A DNA stretch of 64,000 bases, from positions 96,001-160,000 of the forward strand of contig CAWBHS010000062.1 in NCBI GenBank assembly GCA_963788655.1. Reading direction: 5' to 3'. Of the stretch, positions 22,971-31,744 are shown piece after piece. Every line of letters begins with the position of its first letter. Position 1 is the stretch's first letter. The notes below the pieces were generated by a model, which was not told the origin of the DNA, searched no databases, and saw only the letters and a list, made by a program, of their open reading frames with translations. A program made the position numbers and the translations under genes. The stretch is from an uncultured Verrucomicrobiae bacterium (GTDB taxonomy: Bacteria > Verrucomicrobiota > Verrucomicrobiia > Limisphaerales > JAFGQR01).

Positions 22971-25900
22971 TCACCGTGAATTGGACTGGGTAACGCGCAG
23001 CGGCACGGCCAGTTCGCCGGTGGCCTTTCCCTCGGTGAGCAACTCGATATGAATACGCGCTTCTCGGGCGGCCGTCGATGCCGGAGCTTGCACGATACAC
23101 TCGATTTGCTGCTCCGTGATTGGCTTCAGCGTCGTCTGCCATAACCGCGGGGCCTTCACTCGGAGCGACGGAGCCGTTACTGCTTCACCGTTCAGAGTAA
23201 ACACTGCGGTCCCGCCTTCGCTGATGGTCGGCGGGGCCGATTCCAACCGCAGCGCCGAGGCTGCCAGCGCCTTCGCCAATCCGTTCTGTGCATCCGCATA
23301 GAGCAGCATCAATGGCTCGGCGGAGACCGTAAGACTGAGGCCGCCGGCCGCGCTTTGCAGCCGGGTGCGGTCGCCGTCCACGTGGACCACCTCGACGGCC
23401 AGGTTTGCCGGCAGCGGCACGCGGATGTCGGTCCTGCCCTCGTCCCGCCACAGCACTTGCAGGCAGCCGCCTCGCACATCGCGAAACAGGTACGCCTGGA
23501 CACCGTTGGGATACTGTTGCTCCTCGACGAACTTCTTGTCGCAGATCCCATTGACCAGATCGTAATACGTGATGGCATCCAGGCGCGGATTGTAGAGGTT
23601 GTATTTGCAGTCGAAGACACAATGCGAATCGCCGAACTGGCCGCGCGCCTTGCCTTGGGGATCGGGATATTGAATCGTAAACCAACTGACCGTCGAGCCT
23701 CCCGCGGCGAAGAACACGGTGAACTTCTTGATCATCTCGAGGGCCACGGCATGCCGGGTTTGCCCTTGGCTGTTCAGACCGAGTTCGGTGGAATGAATCG
23801 GTTTCACGGCGTGATATTTCTCCATCAACGCCCGGTATTCCCGGATGGTTCGGCGCACGTTCGAGTAGTGTTCGTAGATGTGGAAATCGTAGGCGTCGAG
23901 ATAGTTTTGATAGCCAGCCTTGAAATACTCTTCATTCGGTTCGACGGAGGTTCCAATGACGTGGATGGCGGGATCGAACGCTTTGACGGTTTCATAGATG
24001 GCTCGGTAGGCGCGGACGTTATCAAGAACCTTCTGGCCGGTGCCATGCGGTTCGTTGCCCATGGCGATCATGGCCAGCCCCTTGTTGGCGTATTGCTCGA
24101 GAAAGTTCTTCATTCCCTGTCGCAGCGATTCTTCGGTGTATTCCTTGAAACCGTCCCGCTCGATACTGCTGGCGGGCGTGCCGGTGATCCATTTGGCGCC
24201 CAGTTTTTGGCAACGGTCGATGCCCGGGCCCTGGGGTTGGTAAGGTGGTTTGGCGGACCATCCTCCCCAAACGCCGATCTGGCGCAGCCCCAGCCGATCA
24301 GCCAGATCGAAGTAAACGGGAATTCGGCTGTCCCAGTTGCGGATGGTGAAAGGAATCTGCTCTGGCGCGAACTGCTTGCTGATCGCCGGCGGCAGGATGG
24401 CGAAGCCCGAGTATTCCACCTCCGCCGTGTCGCCTTCCTGCGGAATTGCCACGTGCAACTCGTAATACTTGCCCACCCGAAGCCGATTGTTCGGGATCGA
24501 GATTTTCGTGGCATAAACAAATTGCTTCCCGTCACCCTTGGTTCGCTCGAGCTTGGCCTCGCCTGGCTCCAATTGCTCGGCGCCCCAATAATCCCGCACG
24601 AAATACCGCATGACCTGTTGCGCCGTCGGCAGTGGTTTGGCCGCTTCCACCGTCACTTTGAATTGGACGGGACCGCCCGGCAGAAACAGGTTGCCCACTG
24701 CCTCCGTGGCGAGTTTGATGCGCTCGACCCGCTTCTCAATGGGCCCGGTGCTCAACGGAGCCGCCGCAAGGTCGTCCAGCCAGAAGGAACCGTAGGTCTT
24801 GCGGAGTTGAACGCGGAATCTGGCCTGCGCGGCTCCCGTGGGCAGTGTCACCGTTTGCGTTGCCGTTTGCCAATCGTGTTCGCCATACCCGATTCCCACG
24901 GGAATGGTCTCCAACACCGCGCCCGCCCGATTGAAGGCTTCGAGATCAACGCTGCCGTGATACGAGTTATCCGGACTGTGCAGTTTCGCTTTCCACGCAT
25001 ACTGCACCTGCCAGGTTCCCGGACCCACGGTGAAGATCGGGCTGGCGGCCCAGGTCGCGGTCGTCAGCGCGTTCAATGAACGTTGCAAGAGCAGCGCCTG
25101 ACCCTGGCCATTGCGGCCTGGGCCGTCGGGTCGGACTGCGCCGGCGGTTTGCCAGTTGGCCAGGGATGCCGCGGCGTCGAAGGTTTCGGTGTACGCGGCT
25201 GGTTTGATTCTGGCTTCCACCACCACCTCCGCGCGCAGATCAGCGATGAGCAAATCGGGTTGCTTGCCCGCGTGCGATTCAATGTTCAACATCAGTTCCA
25301 TGAGGCGGACGGAATCGTGCCAGACGCCGTCATTGGCGCCGCCCCAATGTTCGCTGCCCGCGATCCCGGTGGGAACAATCTCGACCTCATGCCATTGGCC
25401 ATCAGCCTGAAACGGGATGTTCTTCCGCTGATGGCATTGGTCCGTGCCATCGACCAGCCGCAACGCAAACGAGGAAACGGTTTTCGAGCGCAGCTTCATG
25501 CGGATGACTTTGATGGCCTGAACGTCCAATGCGGCGAATGATTTCCGCACGCCGACATAGGCGCCGCCGCCGGTAAAATCCGCGTGCAGGCGCATGGCGT
25601 TCTGGCCGGGTTCCGGTTGATCGCGAACCAGGTCAAGACTCCCTTTGGCGCCGGCGAATTCCTGGCCCAAGTTGAAGCCCCAGTCCAATTCGCCGGCCTG
25701 GAGCATTTCATCCAGGCGAATCTCTTTGGTGAGCGCCGCCAGCCTGGTGGTGCTGGGGTGCAGCAACACGTCGCTGATCAATACGGTTCCGTTGGTGCCG
25801 AGGTTCCGGCTGAACAGAATGACGAACAACCGACCGGGCTGGTGCCACTTGCCGTCGTTCGCGCCGCTCCATTTTTCGTATTGGGTGGCAATGTCGAGCG

Positions 25901-26363
25901 CCGCCGGCGTGCCCATCGTTTTGAAATATTCCTCGACCGGCAGGACCAACTGTTGCCAGCCGCCCTTTTCGTGAATCTTGAGCCGGATCTGATGGACTTG
26001 TTCGGAACCATCCACCAGCCGGATGGTCAGTTGCTTGGCGCCAGTCGGACAGTTCACCCAAAACGAAAGCGCCTCCACGGGCGTCTCCGGCAGAACGATC
26101 GAGGCCTCGACGTAGTTGCCGCCCTGGGTAAAATCGCCGGAGAGACTCAGGACCGGGTGATCGCGAAAAGGCTCGGCCGCCAGTTCGAGTTTGCCGCGGG
26201 CACCCGGAAACTCGGGGCCATTACCGAATTTCCAACCGCCGGCTGATTGGTGGGCATCGATGAGCGAAACCGGTTGCTGCCCGAGCGCCACGCTCGCCAA
26301 CAGCGGAATGATGCAGCTTGCCAGGCAATACTTCGACCGCGTGCAAAAGGAGGATTGTGTCAT
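22971..26363 (-). CDS. Secreted glycoside hydrolase (clan GH-A, GH39/GH5-like) with three N-terminal carbohydrate-binding-like domains
   Basis: Signal peptide; two homologous WxFxxGxEFxGAxG domains plus a CBM4/9-like domain; GNEP acid/base motif, FHIY, and STELG nucleophile motif. Confidence 0.7.
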   Translation of the reverse strand: MTQSSFCTRSKYCLASCIIPLLASVALGQQPVSLIDAHQSAGGWKFGNGPEFPGARGKLELAAEPFRDHPVLSLSGDFTQGGNYVEASIVLPETPVEALSFWVNCPTGAKQLTIRLVDGSEQVHQIRLKIHEKGGWQQLVLPVEEYFKTMGTPAALDIATQYEKWSGANDGKWHQPGRLFVILFSRNLGTNGTVLISDVLLHPSTTRLAALTKEIRLDEMLQAGELDWGFNLGQEFAGAKGSLDLVRDQPEPGQNAMRLHADFTGGGAYVGVRKSFAALDVQAIKVIRMKLRSKTVSSFALRLVDGTDQCHQRKNIPFQADGQWHEVEIVPTGIAGSEHWGGANDGVWHDSVRLMELMLNIESHAGKQPDLLIADLRAEVVVEARIKPAAYTETFDAAASLANWQTAGAVRPDGPGRNGQGQALLLQRSLNALTTATWAASPIFTVGPGTWQVQYAWKAKLHSPDNSYHGSVDLEAFNRAGAVLETIPVGIGYGEHDWQTATQTVTLPTGAAQARFRVQLRKTYGSFWLDDLAAAPLSTGPIEKRVERIKLATEAVGNLFLPGGPVQFKVTVEAAKPLPTAQQVMRYFVRDYWGAEQLEPGEAKLERTKGDGKQFVYATKISIPNNRLRVGKYYELHVAIPQEGDTAEVEYSGFAILPPAISKQFAPEQIPFTIRNWDSRIPVYFDLADRLGLRQIGVWGGWSAKPPYQPQGPGIDRCQKLGAKWITGTPASSIERDGFKEYTEESLRQGMKNFLEQYANKGLAMIAMGNEPHGTGQKVLDNVRAYRAIYETVKAFDPAIHVIGTSVEPNEEYFKAGYQNYLDAYDFHIYEHYSNVRRTIREYRALMEKYHAVKPIHSTELGLNSQGQTRHAVALEMIKKFTVFFAAGGSTVSWFTIQYPDPQGKARGQFGDSHCVFDCKYNLYNPRLDAITYYDLVNGICDKKFVEEQQYPNGVQAYLFRDVRGGCLQVLWRDEGRTDIRVPLPANLAVEVVHVDGDRTRLQSAAGGLSLTVSAEPLMLLYADAQNGLAKALAASALRLESAPPTISEGGTAVFTLNGEAVTAPSLRVKAPRLWQTTLKPITEQQIECIVQAPASTAAREARIHIELLTEGKATGELAVPLRVTQSNSR

Positions 26364-26417
26364 TTCACCACCGAATTTGAAGGCGGACCGTAATCGAATC
26401 AAGGTTATTGGCTCACC

Positions 26418-26519
26418 TCACGGCACCGTGGTGGCGGTCTCGGCCTGCCGGCGCTTCAGCGCGTCCACCTCCGCTTGCAATGCGGCCAACTCGGCCACAA
26501 TCCGGCGTTGCCGCTTCAT
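26418..26519 (-). pseudogene. hsdS 3'-tail fragment copy 3 (MKRQRRIVAELAALQAEVDALKRRQAETATTVP)
   Basis: Matches the HsdS C-terminal conserved helix EQRRIVAELD.LQ.EVD.LK.LQ; its ATG overlaps the upstream gene's TGA. Confidence 0.75.
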
Positions 26520-27028
26520 GTTTGATTCTCCTTTGAATACTGCCACAAGGCGCGGTCCAGTATCCGCATTGAAGCATTGGCCTGTTGGACGAGACTGCGG
26601 CAGAATTCGGTGTATTTCTGCCAAAACTGAAAGTCGTATTGTTTGGGGACATCGTGGTTCAGAGACCACAAAGCGCGATAATCTACAATGGGATACGGGT
26701 CTGAATGGAAAAAGTGGAGAATCACGGATGCCGTGGGCCAACTGACACCCCTCAATAGCGTCAGCACCTCTATTCGTAGCTGGTCCGAAGGCGTGCTGAG
26801 TGCGCAATGCGTCACATCCCTGATAAAGTCCGCAGAGTTTGTGCGGCAGCGCGGTTGCGTGCGGGGCGACTTCCAATGGCAAATCGCGATGAATTCATCC
26901 TTGATAAGAAAGCCTCTCTGCTTGACTGCTCCAAAGACAGAAAGGGCTGCCTTATCGTCATACTCATAACGCTCTGCCCAGTGCTCAATTTCTCCAACAG
27001 GAAACCTCAATTGGAACGCTGTGCTCAT
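26516..27028 (-). CDS. Uncharacterised 170 aa protein with helix-hairpin-helix DNA-glycosylase-like motif
   Basis: LTLLRGVSWPTASVILHF...YPIVDYRA resembles the HhH motif plus downstream catalytic Asp of HhH-GPD glycosylases; lower GC than flanks. Confidence 0.6.
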   Translation of the reverse strand: MSTAFQLRFPVGEIEHWAERYEYDDKAALSVFGAVKQRGFLIKDEFIAICHWKSPRTQPRCRTNSADFIRDVTHCALSTPSDQLRIEVLTLLRGVSWPTASVILHFFHSDPYPIVDYRALWSLNHDVPKQYDFQFWQKYTEFCRSLVQQANASMRILDRALWQYSKENQT

Positions 27029-27093
27029 AGTTCTCTTTTGAAGGCGCGGTCGAGGATGGCGGAGAGGAATGCGTCCAACTCGGCGCTGATCAT
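27025..27093 (-). pseudogene. hsdS 3'-tail fragment copy 2 (MISAELDAFLSAILDRAFKREL)
   Basis: ILDRAFKxEL* is the typical HsdS C-terminus; near identical to ~27973-28030; stop overlaps ATG of the next gene. Confidence 0.8.
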
Positions 27094-27127
27094 GCGCTGC
27101 GCATAAATTGGAATTTAGGTTTTTTGT

Positions 27128-27969
27128 TCATTTAATCATCTTCCTTCTCGCATTCGATGGTTGCTTGCCCAGCTTTTTCAAAATCAGCTTGGCAAACTCA
27201 ATCGGGGTTTCGTCTTTTAGAGAGATGTGTCCGACTGTATGTGGTATGCCCGGTAATTCTGTTTCGTCGAAATATGCAGGCAAGATATATTCTTTGCTTT
27301 CTTTCAACGCTCTCGCCAGAGCTGAACGGCGTTCATGTCTCGTCCACATTTTCTTGGCGTAGGATTCTGAAACAAAAATAGCGCAATATTGGCCTGATTG
27401 CTGATACACTAAGTCGAAGTGCTCGGCCAGATCTTTTCCCCAAAGGTCTGCTTGTTCGAATCCGTCGTAGAAAACTCTTACGTCATTCGAACGAAGATAT
27501 TTCGCCACGCGCTCTACATATTTGCGGTCCTCTCCCGCGAAAGACAGCACCACGTCATAAGTCCGGTGAAGTCTCGACAGCATCGCTGTCGGAAGGTCGC
27601 CGTCCTTTACGGCCCAATGGGTGCGGTTAAACTCCCAGTTATGAATGCCAAGCCGATCAACAAATTCACGCACGACCGCCCTTGAAAAGCACCCCTCCTC
27701 ACTGAACTTGAAGGTCAATTCTTGGCGGCCGACCTTAATCTGTCGCAAGTAACCGCAACGAACGATGTCGGTGTTCGGACCTTCAGTGGTAGCCTCATAC
27801 ATCAACAAAGCAGGGACGTGCTCCAACTGCTTCAAGGAGGGGAGATTGCTTATTACTACGGACTCCGCCTCAGGGCCATCGCTGAACTCCTTGAACCTCA
27901 CCAGTTCCATCTCATCAGTTGGTCGGTTTCCCACGCCGTTGGATTCGATGTTACAAGTAAGCTAAACAT
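27128..27969 (-). CDS. TIR-domain protein with an N-terminal domain ending RTHWAVKDGDL (frameshift near 27912)
   Basis: YDVVLSFAGEDR...VFYD...LWGKDL...FVSESY...WTRHE TIR domain retaining the Glu at the catalytic position; the start MFSLLVTSNPTAWE at 27969 lies in another frame. Confidence 0.85.
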
Positions 27970-27972
27970 AGG

Positions 27973-28098
27973 TCATAGATTTCCTTTAAAGGCGCGGTCG
28001 AGGATGGCGGGCAGCAACGGATCCAACTCGGTGGCGGTTTCGGCTTGCAGACGCTTGAGCGCGTCCCCCTCCATTTGCAGATCATGTAGTCCTTTCAT
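27973..28098 (-). pseudogene. hsdS 3'-tail fragment copy 1 (MKGLHDLQMEGDALKRLQAETATELDPLLPAILDRAFKGNL)
   Basis: 41 aa mini-ORF matching the HsdS C-terminal coiled coil; shares DNA segments with both other copies. Confidence 0.8.
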
Positions 28099-28206
28099 TT
28101 AGTAAAAGGCCCTCGTGCTATTTGCTTTCCGCACGAGTGAACGCCGAAGGCTGAAGGCTGAAGTTCTCCCGTCTCGTGTCACCAGTCTGTTTTCAGCATT
28201 TAGCAT

Positions 28207-28410
28207 TTATCCTTTAGCCTTGTGTCCGCAGGAAATTGGCGTTGCACGCAGCCCACCGACTTCAGCGGCAGGAATCCAGACTGCTTTCCCGTTGCGCCAT
28301 CCGGCGAGCGGCCTTGACTGCCGCCGGTGTTCTTCCACGACCTTGGCCACGGCGCCACTCAACGCCTGCATGGCCTTCTGAGTCAGAGATGATTTGTTTG
28401 ATTTCTTCAT
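28207..28410 (-). CDS. Small basic protein (67 aa), resembles small partners of zeta-toxin-like ATPases
   Basis: KAMQALSGAVAKVVEEHRRQSRPLAGWRNGKAVWIP pattern; family assignment is from recollection only. Confidence 0.5.
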   Translation of the reverse strand: MKKSNKSSLTQKAMQALSGAVAKVVEEHRRQSRPLAGWRNGKAVWIPAAEVGGLRATPISCGHKAKG

Positions 28411-28663
28411 GGCGCAAACTCACGCCGCAATTGTTCGTTCTTCCTTCGATTGCTGCCCAGATATGCCTGATTCTGTTGGCCATTCAAGCCTATTCGAAAT
28501 TACCAAACCCTGGCGCAGCGAGCCTGTTTGCCTGCCGGGAGTGCAGAGCGCCAGGACAAGTCTCCCCGCGTGGGCAAACGGGCGGCCAGCCAGCAGGATT
28601 TGTGGCGCACCAGGGTTCATCATTGTCAATTAGTTGCCTCGTTCGTAGCTTGAAAAACGAACA

Positions 28664-31600
28664 ATGCATGGGCCGGAACAACAACTGCGTTTGCTTACCG
28701 CCGCCGATTGTGAAGTGCGCTTTGACAATCTCACGCGGCAGCTTTACGCCACCGACGCTTCGATTTACCAGGTCGAACCGCTGGGCGTGGCTTTTCCGCG
28801 AAGTGCCGCGCAGGCGGCCTCGGTGATTCAGGCAGCGGCTGAGGCGGGCGTATCGGTCATTCCCCGGGGCGCCGGCAGCGGATTGGTCGGTGGGGCAATT
28901 GGCCATGGCTTGGTGGTCGAGTTTTCCCGCTACAATCGGCAGATCACCGATCTGAACCTGGAGCAGCGCACGGTGAACGTGGGCGCCGGAGTAGGTACTG
29001 GACCAGTTGAACGCGTTCCTCAAACCGCACGGCTACGGTTTCGGCCCGGACGTGGCCACCAGTTCGCGCGCTACGTTGGGCGGCATGATTGCCAACGATT
29101 CCTCCGGCGCGCGGACGCCGGTTTACGGCACCACCGCCGAGCATGTGCGATCGCTCGAATTGGTGCTGGCGGATGGCCGGGTGGAAACCACCGGCTCACA
29201 CGGCGGCACGTTGGCGCCGCTGCGAGAATTCGCCGACCAATTGATACGCCACCATGCTGCCGCCATCGCCGAACGGATGCCCGCCGGGGTTGTTGAAACG
29301 CTGGCCGGGCTACGGCATCAGCCGGTTGTTGCGGGAACCGGGTAACTTGCACCACGTGCTGGCGGGTAGCGAAGGCACGCTGGCAGCCATCATGTCGGCG
29401 GAACTCCGAATCGTTCCTTTACCCCGTGCAAAAGGGCCTCGGCGTCGTGTTCTTCGCTTCGATTGCCGAAGCCATGCAGGCCACGGTGGAATTGCTCGAA
29501 CTCAAACCCGCGGCCATCGAGCACGTGGATCGGGTGTTGTTCGATCAAACGCGCGGCCAGCTTCAATTCCAGGCCGCGCGCGATCTTCTCGAATTGGAGG
29601 CCAAGCCGTGCGAGGCCTTTTTGATCGTCGAATTCTACGACGAAGCGACCGAACGATTGCAGGCGCTGGCGAAAAAGAAACTGGGTTTGCGCACCCGGCT
29701 CGTAAATACCCCTGCGGAAATGGATCTCGTTTGGGGTTTGCGCAAGGCCGGGCTCACTTTGTTGACCGGTCGTCCCGGGCCCGCCAAGCCGGTGACGGGC
29801 ATTGAGGATGCCGCCATTCCGCCCAAGCATTTGCCCGAATATGTTGCCGGGTTGCAATCCCTGCTTAAACCGTTGGCCGTGACCGCTTGCTTCTACGGTC
29901 ATGCGGCTGCGGGGTTGCTCCACGTGCGGCCCGTGCTCGATTTGCACCAGGCGGAGGACTTGCGGAAGTTCCGTCAAATCGCGGACGAGGTTGCCGCGCT
30001 GGTACGGCAATTCAAAGGTTCCCTCTCCGGAGAACACGGCGTTGGCATGGCGCGCACGGAATACTTGCGCGAACAACTGGGCGCGGAAGTCTTCAGGGTG
30101 ATGCGCGAGATCAAGCGAACATTTGATCCGCGGAACGTCTTTAATCCGGGCAAGGTGGTGGGGACGGATGAGGAAGAGGTCGAGGCGGATGCGGGCTTTG
30201 CGAGCGGTTCCAAGGCTTCTGCCGACGAGACGTCGGCACAAACGACGGACAGAGCGTGTTCCGCTACGGACGGAAGTCGGACGGCGCAGCGCCTGTTCCA
30301 AACTGCCGGCAAGATGCCGGCAGCACGTTGGGCGGACTACCGGATTGATCGGCATCTGCGGATGGGCGCGGGTTACGAGTTGAAGCTGCCATTCGAACCG
30401 GAGTTGGCGTTCGCCGCCAAAGACCACTCGTTCGTTGGCAACCTGGAGCAGTGCAATGGGTGCGGTGGCTGCCGCAAGGAAACGCCCACCATGTGTCCGA
30501 CGTTTGTCGCCACCGGCGAGGAAATCATGTCCACGCGCGGCCGGGCCAACACGATTCGCGCCGTGCTGGAACAACGCGGCCTCACCGGCGTAGATCCGTT
30601 GCAGTCGGCAGAGTTGGAAGCCGCCCTAAGCAATTGTCTCTCGTGCAAAGCCTGCACCAAAGAATGCCCGTCCAATGTAAACCTGGCCTTGCTCAAGGCG
30701 GAATTGCGGTACGCGCGGCACCGACGCGATGGTCTGCCACTGCGGGTGCGGTTGATCAGTGCGGTGGACTTGCTGGGCCGGTGGGGGTGCCGGATGCCCG
30801 CGTTGGCCAATGCCGCCCTGCGTTGGCGGTGGCTGCGCTGGCTGATGGAGAAGACATTGGGATTCTCGGCGCAACGCTCGTTGCCCACCTACGCAGCGGA
30901 ACGGTTTGATGATTGGTTTGCCCGCCGGACCGCCACGCCGCCAGCGCATCGCGGCCCGGTCATTTTGTGGGATGACACGTTTGTGCGTTACCATGAACCG
31001 CACATCGGCCAAGCGGCGGTGGCCGTGCTGGAAGCGGCCGGCTTTGAAGTGATCCTGCCGCGAGGCCGCCAATGTTGCGGTCGGCCCGCGTTCAGCCAGG
31101 GAAACTTGGACGAAGTGAGGCGGCTCGGGCGGCACAATCTGGATTTGCTGAAAGACCCGGCCACTGAAAGCGGCAACGGGACTCGGCGGAAAATGCTTGA
31201 AGGCAGTACCGGCCAAATCGCTGGCATCCTCGGGAAGGCCGACGTGCCCATTGTGTTTCTCGAACCGTCCTGCTGGGCCATGTTCAAGGAAGATTACCGG
31301 GAATTGAAATTGGCCGGGGCAGACCAAGTAAGCCCGCGGTGTTTCCTGTTCGAACAGTTTATCGAGGATCTGCTAAGCCGCGAACCGGAGGCTTTACGGT
31401 TCAATCAAGTGCCGGGAACCATTGCCATCCACGCGCATTGCCACGCGAAATCATTGATGAATCCCGCCTTTATGGCCCAGTTGGCGCGCCGTTTGCCAGC
31501 GCGTAACGTAACGCTGCTGGACACCGGCTGTTGTGGCATGGCGGGCGCCTTCGGCACCCTGGCCGCCAAGTATGAACTCTCCCGGATGGTCGCGCAACCG

Positions 31601-31744
31601 CTGGTGGACCTGCTTCAACAGCAACCCGCGGGCAGCGAAATTGTGGCTTCCGGCACCAGTTGCCGTCACCAAATCAGCGATCTCACCCCGGCGCATCCCA
31701 AGCACTTGGCGGAGGTGCTGGCCGCCGCACTGGCGGCCGATTAG
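28664..31744 (+). CDS. FAD-linked oxidase / (Fe-S)-binding protein (YdiJ/GlcD-GlcF fusion type); frameshifts near 28995, 29285, 29430
   Basis: YATDASIY, PRGAGSGLVG, ATLGGMIAND, GSEGTLA, SGEHGVG, CNGCGGC, CLSCKACTKECP, CCGRP, CCGMAG. Confidence 0.9.

Follow-up and report, generated by a model that had tools for sequence, protein, structure and literature searches.

Orphan copies of the hsdS 3′ end around accessory genes in an uncultured Verrucomicrobiae bacterium: a probable eroded end of a type I restriction-modification operon

The genome of an uncultured Verrucomicrobiae bacterium (NCBI GenBank assembly GCA_963788655.1) contains, on contig CAWBHS010000062.1, a small island in which two accessory genes alternate with three separate remnants of the 3′ end of hsdS, the last gene of type I restriction-modification (R-M) operons of the order hsdR-hsdM-hsdS. 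The window analysed here is the whole stretch of 64,000 nucleotides (nt) around this island, positions 96,001 to 160,000 of the contig. We read the island as the eroded 3′ end of such an operon, in which accessory genes were stacked by displacement and trimming, and we put the probability of this reading at about 0.6.

All parts of the island lie on the minus strand. Read in that direction, it begins with p67, an open reading frame (ORF) of 67 amino acids (aa) at 28207-28410, followed by a spacer of 108 nt (28099-28206) and by hsdS tail 1, an ORF of 41 aa (27973-28098). Next come a TIR-domain gene (27128-27969), tail 2 (27025-27099, with an ORF of 22 aa at 27093-27025), an intact gene for a protein of 170 aa (26516-27028) and tail 3, an ORF of 33 aa (26418-26519). 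Directly behind tail 3 stands a native gene resembling those of secreted glycoside hydrolases (22971-26363), which forms the right-hand boundary. The guanine-plus-cytosine (GC) content is 0.42-0.55 over about 26350-28450 and about 0.60-0.65 in the flanks, in agreement with a preliminary description of this DNA, which had found the island lower in GC than its surroundings.

The same description had proposed three co-oriented hsdS tails at these places, related as diverged direct repeats, and both points hold. For comparison we used 80 related loci (L numbers below), the best 80 of 218 confirmed tail matches (276 candidate stretches) in a tail-alignment scan of species-representative genomes, mostly from Verrucomicrobiota, Planctomycetota, Proteobacteria, Acidobacteriota and Cyanobacteria. 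A DNA profile of 177 nt was built from 59 full-length hsdS 3′ ends of these loci, and the 80 loci and the whole 64-kb window were searched with it. The window gave three matches only, all on the minus strand: 28085-27973 in tail 1 (profile positions 65-177, E=6e-27), 27088-27025 in tail 2 (positions 114-177, E=1e-11) and 26511-26430 in tail 3 (positions 39-120, E=3e-18). When the tails themselves were run over the whole window by tblastn, nothing further was better than E=0.034. The last 113 nt of tail 1 match the hsdS 3′ end through the stop codon, and its product aligns with the C-terminal 38 residues of HsdS in two chains of solved structure (E about 1e-4; residues 361-398 of 398 in PDB 5ybb_D, E=1.2e-4) and with positions 353-391 of 391 of the PADLOC model Specificity_I (E=2.8e-4). 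Tail 3 matches Specificity_I at 468-496 of 512 (E=1.6e-3), a slightly earlier part of the model than tail 1. Tail 2 has no match in Pfam, NCBIfam or PADLOC because its 22 aa are too short. The Pfam family Methylase_S, which represents the target-recognition domains (two in a whole HsdS), matched none of the three tail ORFs.

Tails 1 and 2 share a direct repeat of 59 nt with 83% identity, tails 1 and 3 one of 50 nt with 84%, and the 5′ parts of tails 2 and 3 are 76% identical over 33 nt. The limits of the features needed correction in two places: the homology of tail 2 begins already at 27099, and the TIR gene starts at 27969 and is frameshifted. Tail 2 keeps the first few codons of the conserved region and the end of the helix, the middle being lost between two AELDA(L/F) repeats; a like loss occurs in L081 (9440-9521). 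Its end, ATGA, overlaps its stop with the start of the 170-aa gene, whose own stop is overlapped by the ATG of tail 3. Tail 3 holds the first half of the conserved helix and stops at a premature TGA. A tblastn alignment of tail 1 there spans 26480-26376, past this stop (E=5.6e-5 overall), and by eye 26364-26417 keeps CCTTCAAA and GGTGAAATGA, which resemble the tail end. Tentatively, tail 3 runs on in decayed form to the hydrolase ATG at 26363; the DNA profile did not detect this decayed half, and MAFFT did not align it to the tail end. The three tails are as diverged as tails of different genomes (percentiles 0.22 and 0.56), and 8 of 16 codon differences are synonymous by hand count. Divergence and synonymous share fit an origin from separate functional hsdS alleles. 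The inverted repeats present in 26300-28300 are short, have 72-92% complementarity and form no pattern with respect to the cassette ends.

The R-M core itself is missing, as are mobility genes, which also agrees with the preliminary description. We scanned 45 of the 71 window ORFs of at least 200 aa (the 26 omitted overlap longer ORFs), and found among them neither R-M families (N6_Mtase, ResIII, HSDR_N) nor an integrase or transposase family. Full HsdR and HsdM queries gave no tblastn match in the window below E=0.29, and a relaxed search with the ends of HsdR and HsdM around p67 and the spacer gave matches at chance level only. Evidence for a former R-M context comes from p67. Pfam, NCBIfam and PADLOC assign it to no family with a meaningful E-value; homologues with 58-61% identity, in a family of about 60-67 aa, are present in four of the 80 loci (L020 7208-7408, L030 3076-3273, L009 3179-3358 and L047 7198-7362), where p67 is an accessory gene of the type I R-M operon and always lies between hsdR and hsdM. 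In L020 and L047 hsdM follows directly. Because of this constant position, the spacer between p67 and tail 1 is the expected place of hsdM and of the hsdS body, of which no remnant is detectable there.

In other genomes the loss of the core has left traces, which represent various stages of it. L027 keeps residues 1-22 of hsdR about 120 nt before a tail remnant (664-1001), and L068 (9436-10177) has an ORF of 154 aa in which the N-terminus of hsdR is fused to the hsdS tail. L043 and L069 retain small pieces of hsdR or hsdM, and in L081 both genes are kept while no hsdS body was detected. Three small database ORFs (P0013, P0028 and P0010) likewise join HsdR-like or HsdM-like N-termini, judged by eye, to the tail. 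Such joins are deletion scars, in which the core was removed and the 5′ end of the operon and the tail were kept. The window is best read in the same way, as an R-M operon without its core that has kept its passengers and is itself decaying.

The preliminary description had expected orphan tails elsewhere, and we found many. At 50 of the 80 loci tblastn detected one tail, ending an ORF of about 400 aa, and nothing else; Methylase_S was present in all six long tail-bearing ORFs tested. The hsdM gene was found in 58 of the loci and hsdR in 51, arranged as hsdR-hsdM-hsdS. At 16 loci the DNA profile revealed, besides an intact hsdS, a total of 21 further tails, all of them downstream and on the hsdS strand (three in L005, two each in L020, L030 and L056, and one in each of 12 others). 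This bias gives about 1.5e-5 in a sign test over the 16 loci, calculated by hand; upstream of hsdS no such orphan tail, or stub, was seen besides the weakly similar central conserved region of hsdS. Stubs without a detected hsdS body occur in L027, L043, L049, L081 and L007 (at least two each) and in L069 (one). A count with the DNA profile gave 32 stubs in 21 of the 80 loci. Further stubs were found by tblastn in L080, L074, L079 and L068, the last three being single and contained in ORFs of 72-154 aa, and in the protein collection 27 other small ORFs end in the tail behind unrelated N-termini. Five plasmid records carry the tail at one place each, in annotated hsdS or unannotated DNA, and are uninformative. 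Several orphan tails contain 6-11 extra codons in frame, inserted at two sites of the helix that are common to them (L005 12002-12208, L027 1711-1884, L049 9302-9427 and L028 10822-10962).

These stubs have a characteristic shape. At 15 of the 16 loci with a full hsdS they are short and devoid of a target-recognition domain, L051 being the exception. The 3′ end is complete and the 5′ cut is variable, anywhere between profile positions 23 and 142. By eye, there was no trend for stubs to shorten with distance from hsdS. Among 66 full tails, 56 have a Shine-Dalgarno-like motif in the last 17 nt and 40 a start codon that overlaps the stop; among 39 orphan tails the figures are 31 and 22. The typical tail end, AAAGGAGAATTATGA, combines both signals, which are partly a mere consequence of the codons for K-G-E-L.

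The 3′ ends of hsdR and hsdM also form orphan stubs downstream of the full gene. In L020 (4709-7408) the order is hsdR, two small ORFs, an hsdR stub, a Fic gene, another hsdR stub, an ORF of 190 aa, p67 and hsdM. Four loci (L005 3271-3371, L017 3021-3217, L035 7663-7763 and L056 4715-4885) show a full hsdR, then 30-60 nt, an hsdR stub and cargo (SIR2-like, Fic and others), and in L009 (7070-8355) hsdM is followed by a DUF3800 gene, an hsdM stub and hsdS. Since the tails of hsdR and hsdM leave like stubs, stub formation is not special to hsdS.

From these patterns we infer the following course of events. Accessory genes would have piled up behind hsdS before the R-M core was lost. Whenever a new hsdS end or gene recombined in, the older hsdS 3′ end would have been pushed downstream together with the gene behind it; such a replacement may have been anchored by homology on one side and closed by a non-homologous joint on the other. 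Deletions would then have trimmed the displaced hsdS to a stub with a whole 3′ end and a variable 5′ cut, which typically fills the narrow gap between two genes, from the stop codon of one to the start codon of the next. This 3′ end presumably survives because the codons for K-G-E-L and the stop spell a ribosome-binding site and, in many cases, a start codon that overlaps the stop, signals that the gene behind would need for its translation. A later deletion of hsdR, hsdM and the hsdS body would have left p67, stub 1 with the TIR gene, stub 2 with the glycosylase-like 170-aa gene, and stub 3.

Several loci in other genomes bear on this course. A segment of L028 (10089-10847), made up of a full hsdS tail and a 75-aa gene, has a counterpart in L056 (10195-10954) with 83.7% identity over 763 nt. 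There the tail is truncated and orphaned, at a distance of 20 nt from a full hsdS of another type that precedes it, and the next stub of L028 is kept as well. Two other cargo families are each found in both settings, after full tails and after orphan ones, according to the locus. Five full genes are followed by an orphan tail within 20-60 nt, with no cargo between (hsdS in L056; hsdR in L005, L017, L035 and L056). A full gene directly before an orphan copy of its own end requires one joint out of register. These pairs look like gene replacement with a non-homologous right-hand joint, or like deletion, with trimming afterwards, and do not resemble the capture of a cassette. In 21 of the 32 stubs the 5′ end, at a profile position between 23 and 130, directly adjoins the stop of the ORF in front (a stub start between -29 and +27 nt from the stop of a same-strand ORF of at least 60 aa was accepted). 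Variable 5′ ends abutting stop codons are the pattern that would be expected of deletional trimming between two selected genes.

Other observations weigh against displacement and trimming as the history of the island. The 80 loci, chosen as the best matches, are not a random sample, and some of the ORFs that enter the count of 21 tight junctions are perhaps spurious in GC-rich DNA. No relative of the window locus occurs among the loci examined, so that the order of events there was not observed. The window shows no detectable remnant of hsdR, hsdM or the hsdS body, and the island could have arrived already stripped. Finally, in three loci the repeats around an insert are nearly identical (131 nt with 96% identity in L080, 59 nt with 98% in L063 and 71 nt with 97% in L005). 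Repeats so alike are a better fit for insertion through homologous crossover within the tail than for a foreign allele that displaced the resident one.

These repeats lead to the strongest alternative, which we consider possible and about half as probable as displacement and trimming. Here the tail is an active homology handle: a tail-cargo-tail segment would enter a resident tail by RecA-dependent double crossover, or would loop out as a circle and return by single crossover, and cassettes would be captured and stacked by a process with no dedicated recombinase, at hsdR and hsdM tails too. Besides the three loci with near-identical direct repeats, the beginnings of some stubs speak for it. 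Nine of the 32 start at profile positions 29-48, about where conservation sets in (two each in L005 and L081, and one each in L007, L028, L043, L049 and L056), and so do tail 3 of the window (position 39) and, by eye, tail 2. No integrase or transposase family was found by Pfam among 74 tail-adjacent ORFs, and the cargo is extremely diverse. However, the five pairs of full gene and orphan tail, being devoid of cargo, require a non-homologous joint, and stub starts as a whole are scattered over the profile. Most tail pairs within an array, those of the window included, are no closer than tails of unrelated genomes. Synonymous-site conservation in the hsdS tail (0.51) shows no excess over the hsdM tail (0.52), with 0.44 in the hsdR tail. 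No cargo was shared by two genomes with both breakpoints inside tails, a result to which the many singleton families described below leave little chance. The preliminary description had proposed that units of tail and cargo stack by recombination in the tail. The stacking stands and is recurrent; the data do not single out the tail as a special handle, in view of the trimming and of the hsdR and hsdM stubs. Displacement with later trimming by deletion accounts for the data no less well, and probably both routes operate.

Much less probable is the decay in place of one operon with tandem hsdS genes or half-genes, each pair separated by a single gene, whose bodies were deleted so that three tails remained, with no serial acquisition. 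Type I loci with several hsdS genes are known, as passages on phase-variable loci describe (PMC7672463); L051 has a second hsdS-like ORF 3 kb downstream; and the window is decaying in general, with its frameshifted TIR gene, truncated tail 3 and broken neighbour gene. Against this, stubs at 15 of 16 loci lie in short ORFs lacking a target-recognition domain, the pair L028/L056 presents a whole array displaced behind a different hsdS, and like stubs come from hsdR, a gene not known to be tandemly repeated. A single decayed R-M operon with identical gene content in relatives had been named in the preliminary description as the case that would speak against its proposal; the window comes close to it, whereas elsewhere the stacks stand behind an intact hsdS. 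Chance similarity or an assembly artefact, which might be suspected in a record that is a single 201-kb contig with a neighbouring gene split over several frames, is scarcely credible in the face of the profile E-values with nothing else matching in 64 kb, a like architecture in at least 21 independent records, and long window ORFs that are intact elsewhere.

The first cargo gene codes for a TIR-domain protein (Pfam TIR_2, E=7.8e-16), with PDC-S66 as the best PADLOC model (E=5e-17) and a weaker match to ThsB (E=7e-7). The family comprises 1979 homologues, mostly of 268-284 aa. Its ATG at 27969 lies 3 nt beyond the stop of tail 1. Six aligned homologues have a common N-terminus, which the window encodes from this ATG in another frame, so that a frameshift of 1 nt must lie near 27910 (27905-27915 on the minus strand, after codon 20); the N-terminus would otherwise match the homologues. 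The frameshift is either real or an assembly error. As to a Thoeris partner, which would be a ThsA protein of the SIR2/SLOG or Macro type, Pfam and PADLOC detected no ThsA-like family in the ORFs near the TIR gene.

The 170-aa gene is full length in comparison with its family of 1386 clusters, or 1828 representatives, all of them unnamed or "hypothetical", and its product matches no Pfam, NCBIfam or PADLOC family. The AlphaFold2 model of the protein has a pLDDT of 96.5. Its best PDB matches are Ogg2-type 8-oxoguanine glycosylases (3knt_A, E=1.1e-3, TM 0.53; range TM 0.45-0.53), and the next structures are OGG1, MagIII, EndoIII, AlkA and MutY. The family profile matches 9o02_A and MutY weakly, and Atlas agrees, also weakly. 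Residue D116 is near-invariant in 74 sequences, and it may correspond to the catalytic Asp after the HhH-GPD hairpin. The label "HhH-glycosylase-like", given in the preliminary description, is a fair one at the level of the predicted fold. Some relatives (P0151, P0194, P0262 and P0258) are fusions with DUF429, DUF6884 or DUF7662. Among unfused relatives, P0040, P0060, P0061 and P0062 have in-frame upstream extensions with the common motif F-Q-[RK]-[RG]-[IA]-V. A search of plasmids gave two partial matches to the 170-aa protein, of which one, in Deinococcus, has no hsd tail nearby; phages gave no match. The nearest homologues of p67 and of the cargo come from Verrucomicrobiota records. The 80 loci contain no homologue of the TIR or the 170-aa protein; the tblastx comparison of the island with these loci was largely compositional noise and was used for the tails and p67 alone.

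Which genes stand behind the tails of other genomes? The 83 ORFs of at least 70 aa in this position fall into 74 families, 69 of them singletons. By Pfam they include HipA-like kinases, PIN, Zeta-toxin-like, SMODS, Schlafen AlbA_2, GmrSD, DUF1016-SNase and AbiEi-like proteins, and others. At a cut-off of E<=1e-5, PADLOC models matched 18 of 74 tail-adjacent ORFs; in a control set of 101 longer ORFs, situated 5-10 kb farther downstream, they matched 7 (Fisher p=0.0018). The enrichment of defence functions foreseen in the preliminary description is thus present, and the test is partly circular because many candidate models derive from R-M-embedded genes. The gene that follows the last stub of an array is often an ordinary one, such as the peroxiredoxin gene of L020, the amidohydrolase gene of L027 and the hydrolase gene of the window. 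The insert of L080 (7339-8933), 1.6 kb long and AT-rich, carries an opposite-strand DUF1653 gene and a gene for a 293-aa protein with no family.

In the hydrolase gene the GC content returns to about 0.60. It has weak CBM_6 and GH5 matches, and after the ATG at 26363 an N-terminus like a signal peptide can be read by eye. At the opposite border of the island lies the divergently transcribed gene of an oxidase dependent on flavin adenine dinucleotide (FAD), starting from 28664. This gene for an FAD-linked oxidase / Fe-S (iron-sulphur) protein (28664-31744, plus strand) is broken across at least three reading frames, in the ORFs 28664-29296, 29007-29345, 29254-29805 and 29426-31744, and its match to FAD_binding_4 breaks off at position 89 of 139. 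Either the gene is a pseudogene or the assembly is poor at this place. Searches for tRNA genes (15-40 kb), Rfam families (25.5-29.5 kb) and promoter-like sites found none; there are two terminator-like sites, fewer than the shuffle mean.

The closest known situation is that of genes embedded in R-M operons. Type I R-M, BREX, DISARM and Hma operons carry "embedded" defence genes according to the main text of Payne et al. (bioRxiv 10.1101/2024.01.29.577857), and the passages on TgvAB of Vibrio cholerae VPI-2 describe genes embedded in a type I R-M operon (PMC11411939). As in our loci, these passages report accessory genes that lie inside or at the end of the type I operon, in operon orientation, and are very diverse, with TIR, GmrSD-like, HipA-like, Fic and PIN among the types. 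The TIR gene of the window matches PDC-S66, a candidate model of PADLOC. In contrast, the papers, so far as those passages go, treat embedding as a route to new defence genes, and they do not mention 3′ stubs of hsd genes or stacks that outlive the core; the words "recombination", "truncat" and "remnant" are absent from the main text of the preprint. No description of orphan hsd tails was found in the full-text literature, a search that leaves subscription journals and supplements outside and is no proof of absence.

Orphan toxin-immunity modules downstream of cdiA and rhs consist of a full-length gene followed by displaced, co-oriented 3′ fragments, each with a short conserved stretch and its own partner gene downstream. 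Such arrays probably arise when the 3′ end is replaced, and they would permit recombination at a later time. The 16 related loci, with their full-length gene upstream of co-oriented 3′ fragments, share this plan as an architectural likeness, not as homology. In cdiA and rhs arrays one protein contains both parts, the stub and, downstream of it, the variable 3′ end. In the hsd arrays the variation lies in a separate gene, and the conserved stub is the extreme end of hsdS. In the window no full-length gene is left.

Integron arrays are similar in their promoterless single-gene units of one orientation, their conserved platform and the high diversity of cargo. Unlike them, our arrays have no detected intI integrase (in the 45 window ORFs scanned and the 74 tail-adjacent ORFs), and the repeats are direct coding stubs of varying length, not attC sites.

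The conserved helices of hsdS are known as substrates of recombination in the exchange of recognition domains, as parts of PMC7672463 and PMC6265443 describe. Phase-variable hsdS loci, in the same passages, shuffle domains through inverted repeats, usually with a recombinase. The copies of the window differ in being direct, devoid of a recognition domain and placed beside unrelated genes, with no recombinase found in the ORFs scanned. Tsuru and Kobayashi described in 2008 (PMC2568036) a unit of evolution that reaches from the 3′ part of an ORF across the spacer into the 5′ part of its neighbour. There too, in the passages concerned, the conserved recombining unit is the end of a gene with the junction to the next one, but that case involves tandem paralogous lipoprotein genes of one species, with no R-M stubs around foreign cargo.

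The window appears to be a decayed defence island and, as such, an ordinary product of a process apparently not yet described, namely the stacking of accessory genes behind duplicated hsd ends. Embedding in R-M operons has already been used to discover immune systems, and the parts of the literature covered leave the route of entry unexplained. The stubs of hsdS, hsdR and hsdM are a sequence signature of each event of insertion or replacement. They allow accessory defence genes to be recognised after the R-M system is lost, as in the window, and offer a direct route to testing plain homologous recombination in the role of an integrase. The 170-aa family with its predicted glycosylase fold, with more than 1300 clusters, no Pfam entry and no name, becomes a defence candidate by context. 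A rather doubtful extension is that the 3′ ends of hsdR, hsdM and hsdS might be portable adaptors, which would supply both the ribosome-binding site with start context and the homology by which RecA could insert, delete or swap tail-flanked genes between the type I R-M operons of distant bacteria. If this were true, such operons would serve defence genes as platforms of an integron-like kind that need no integrase, and their stub arrays would be a readable fossil record of acquisitions, able to outlive the R-M system itself.

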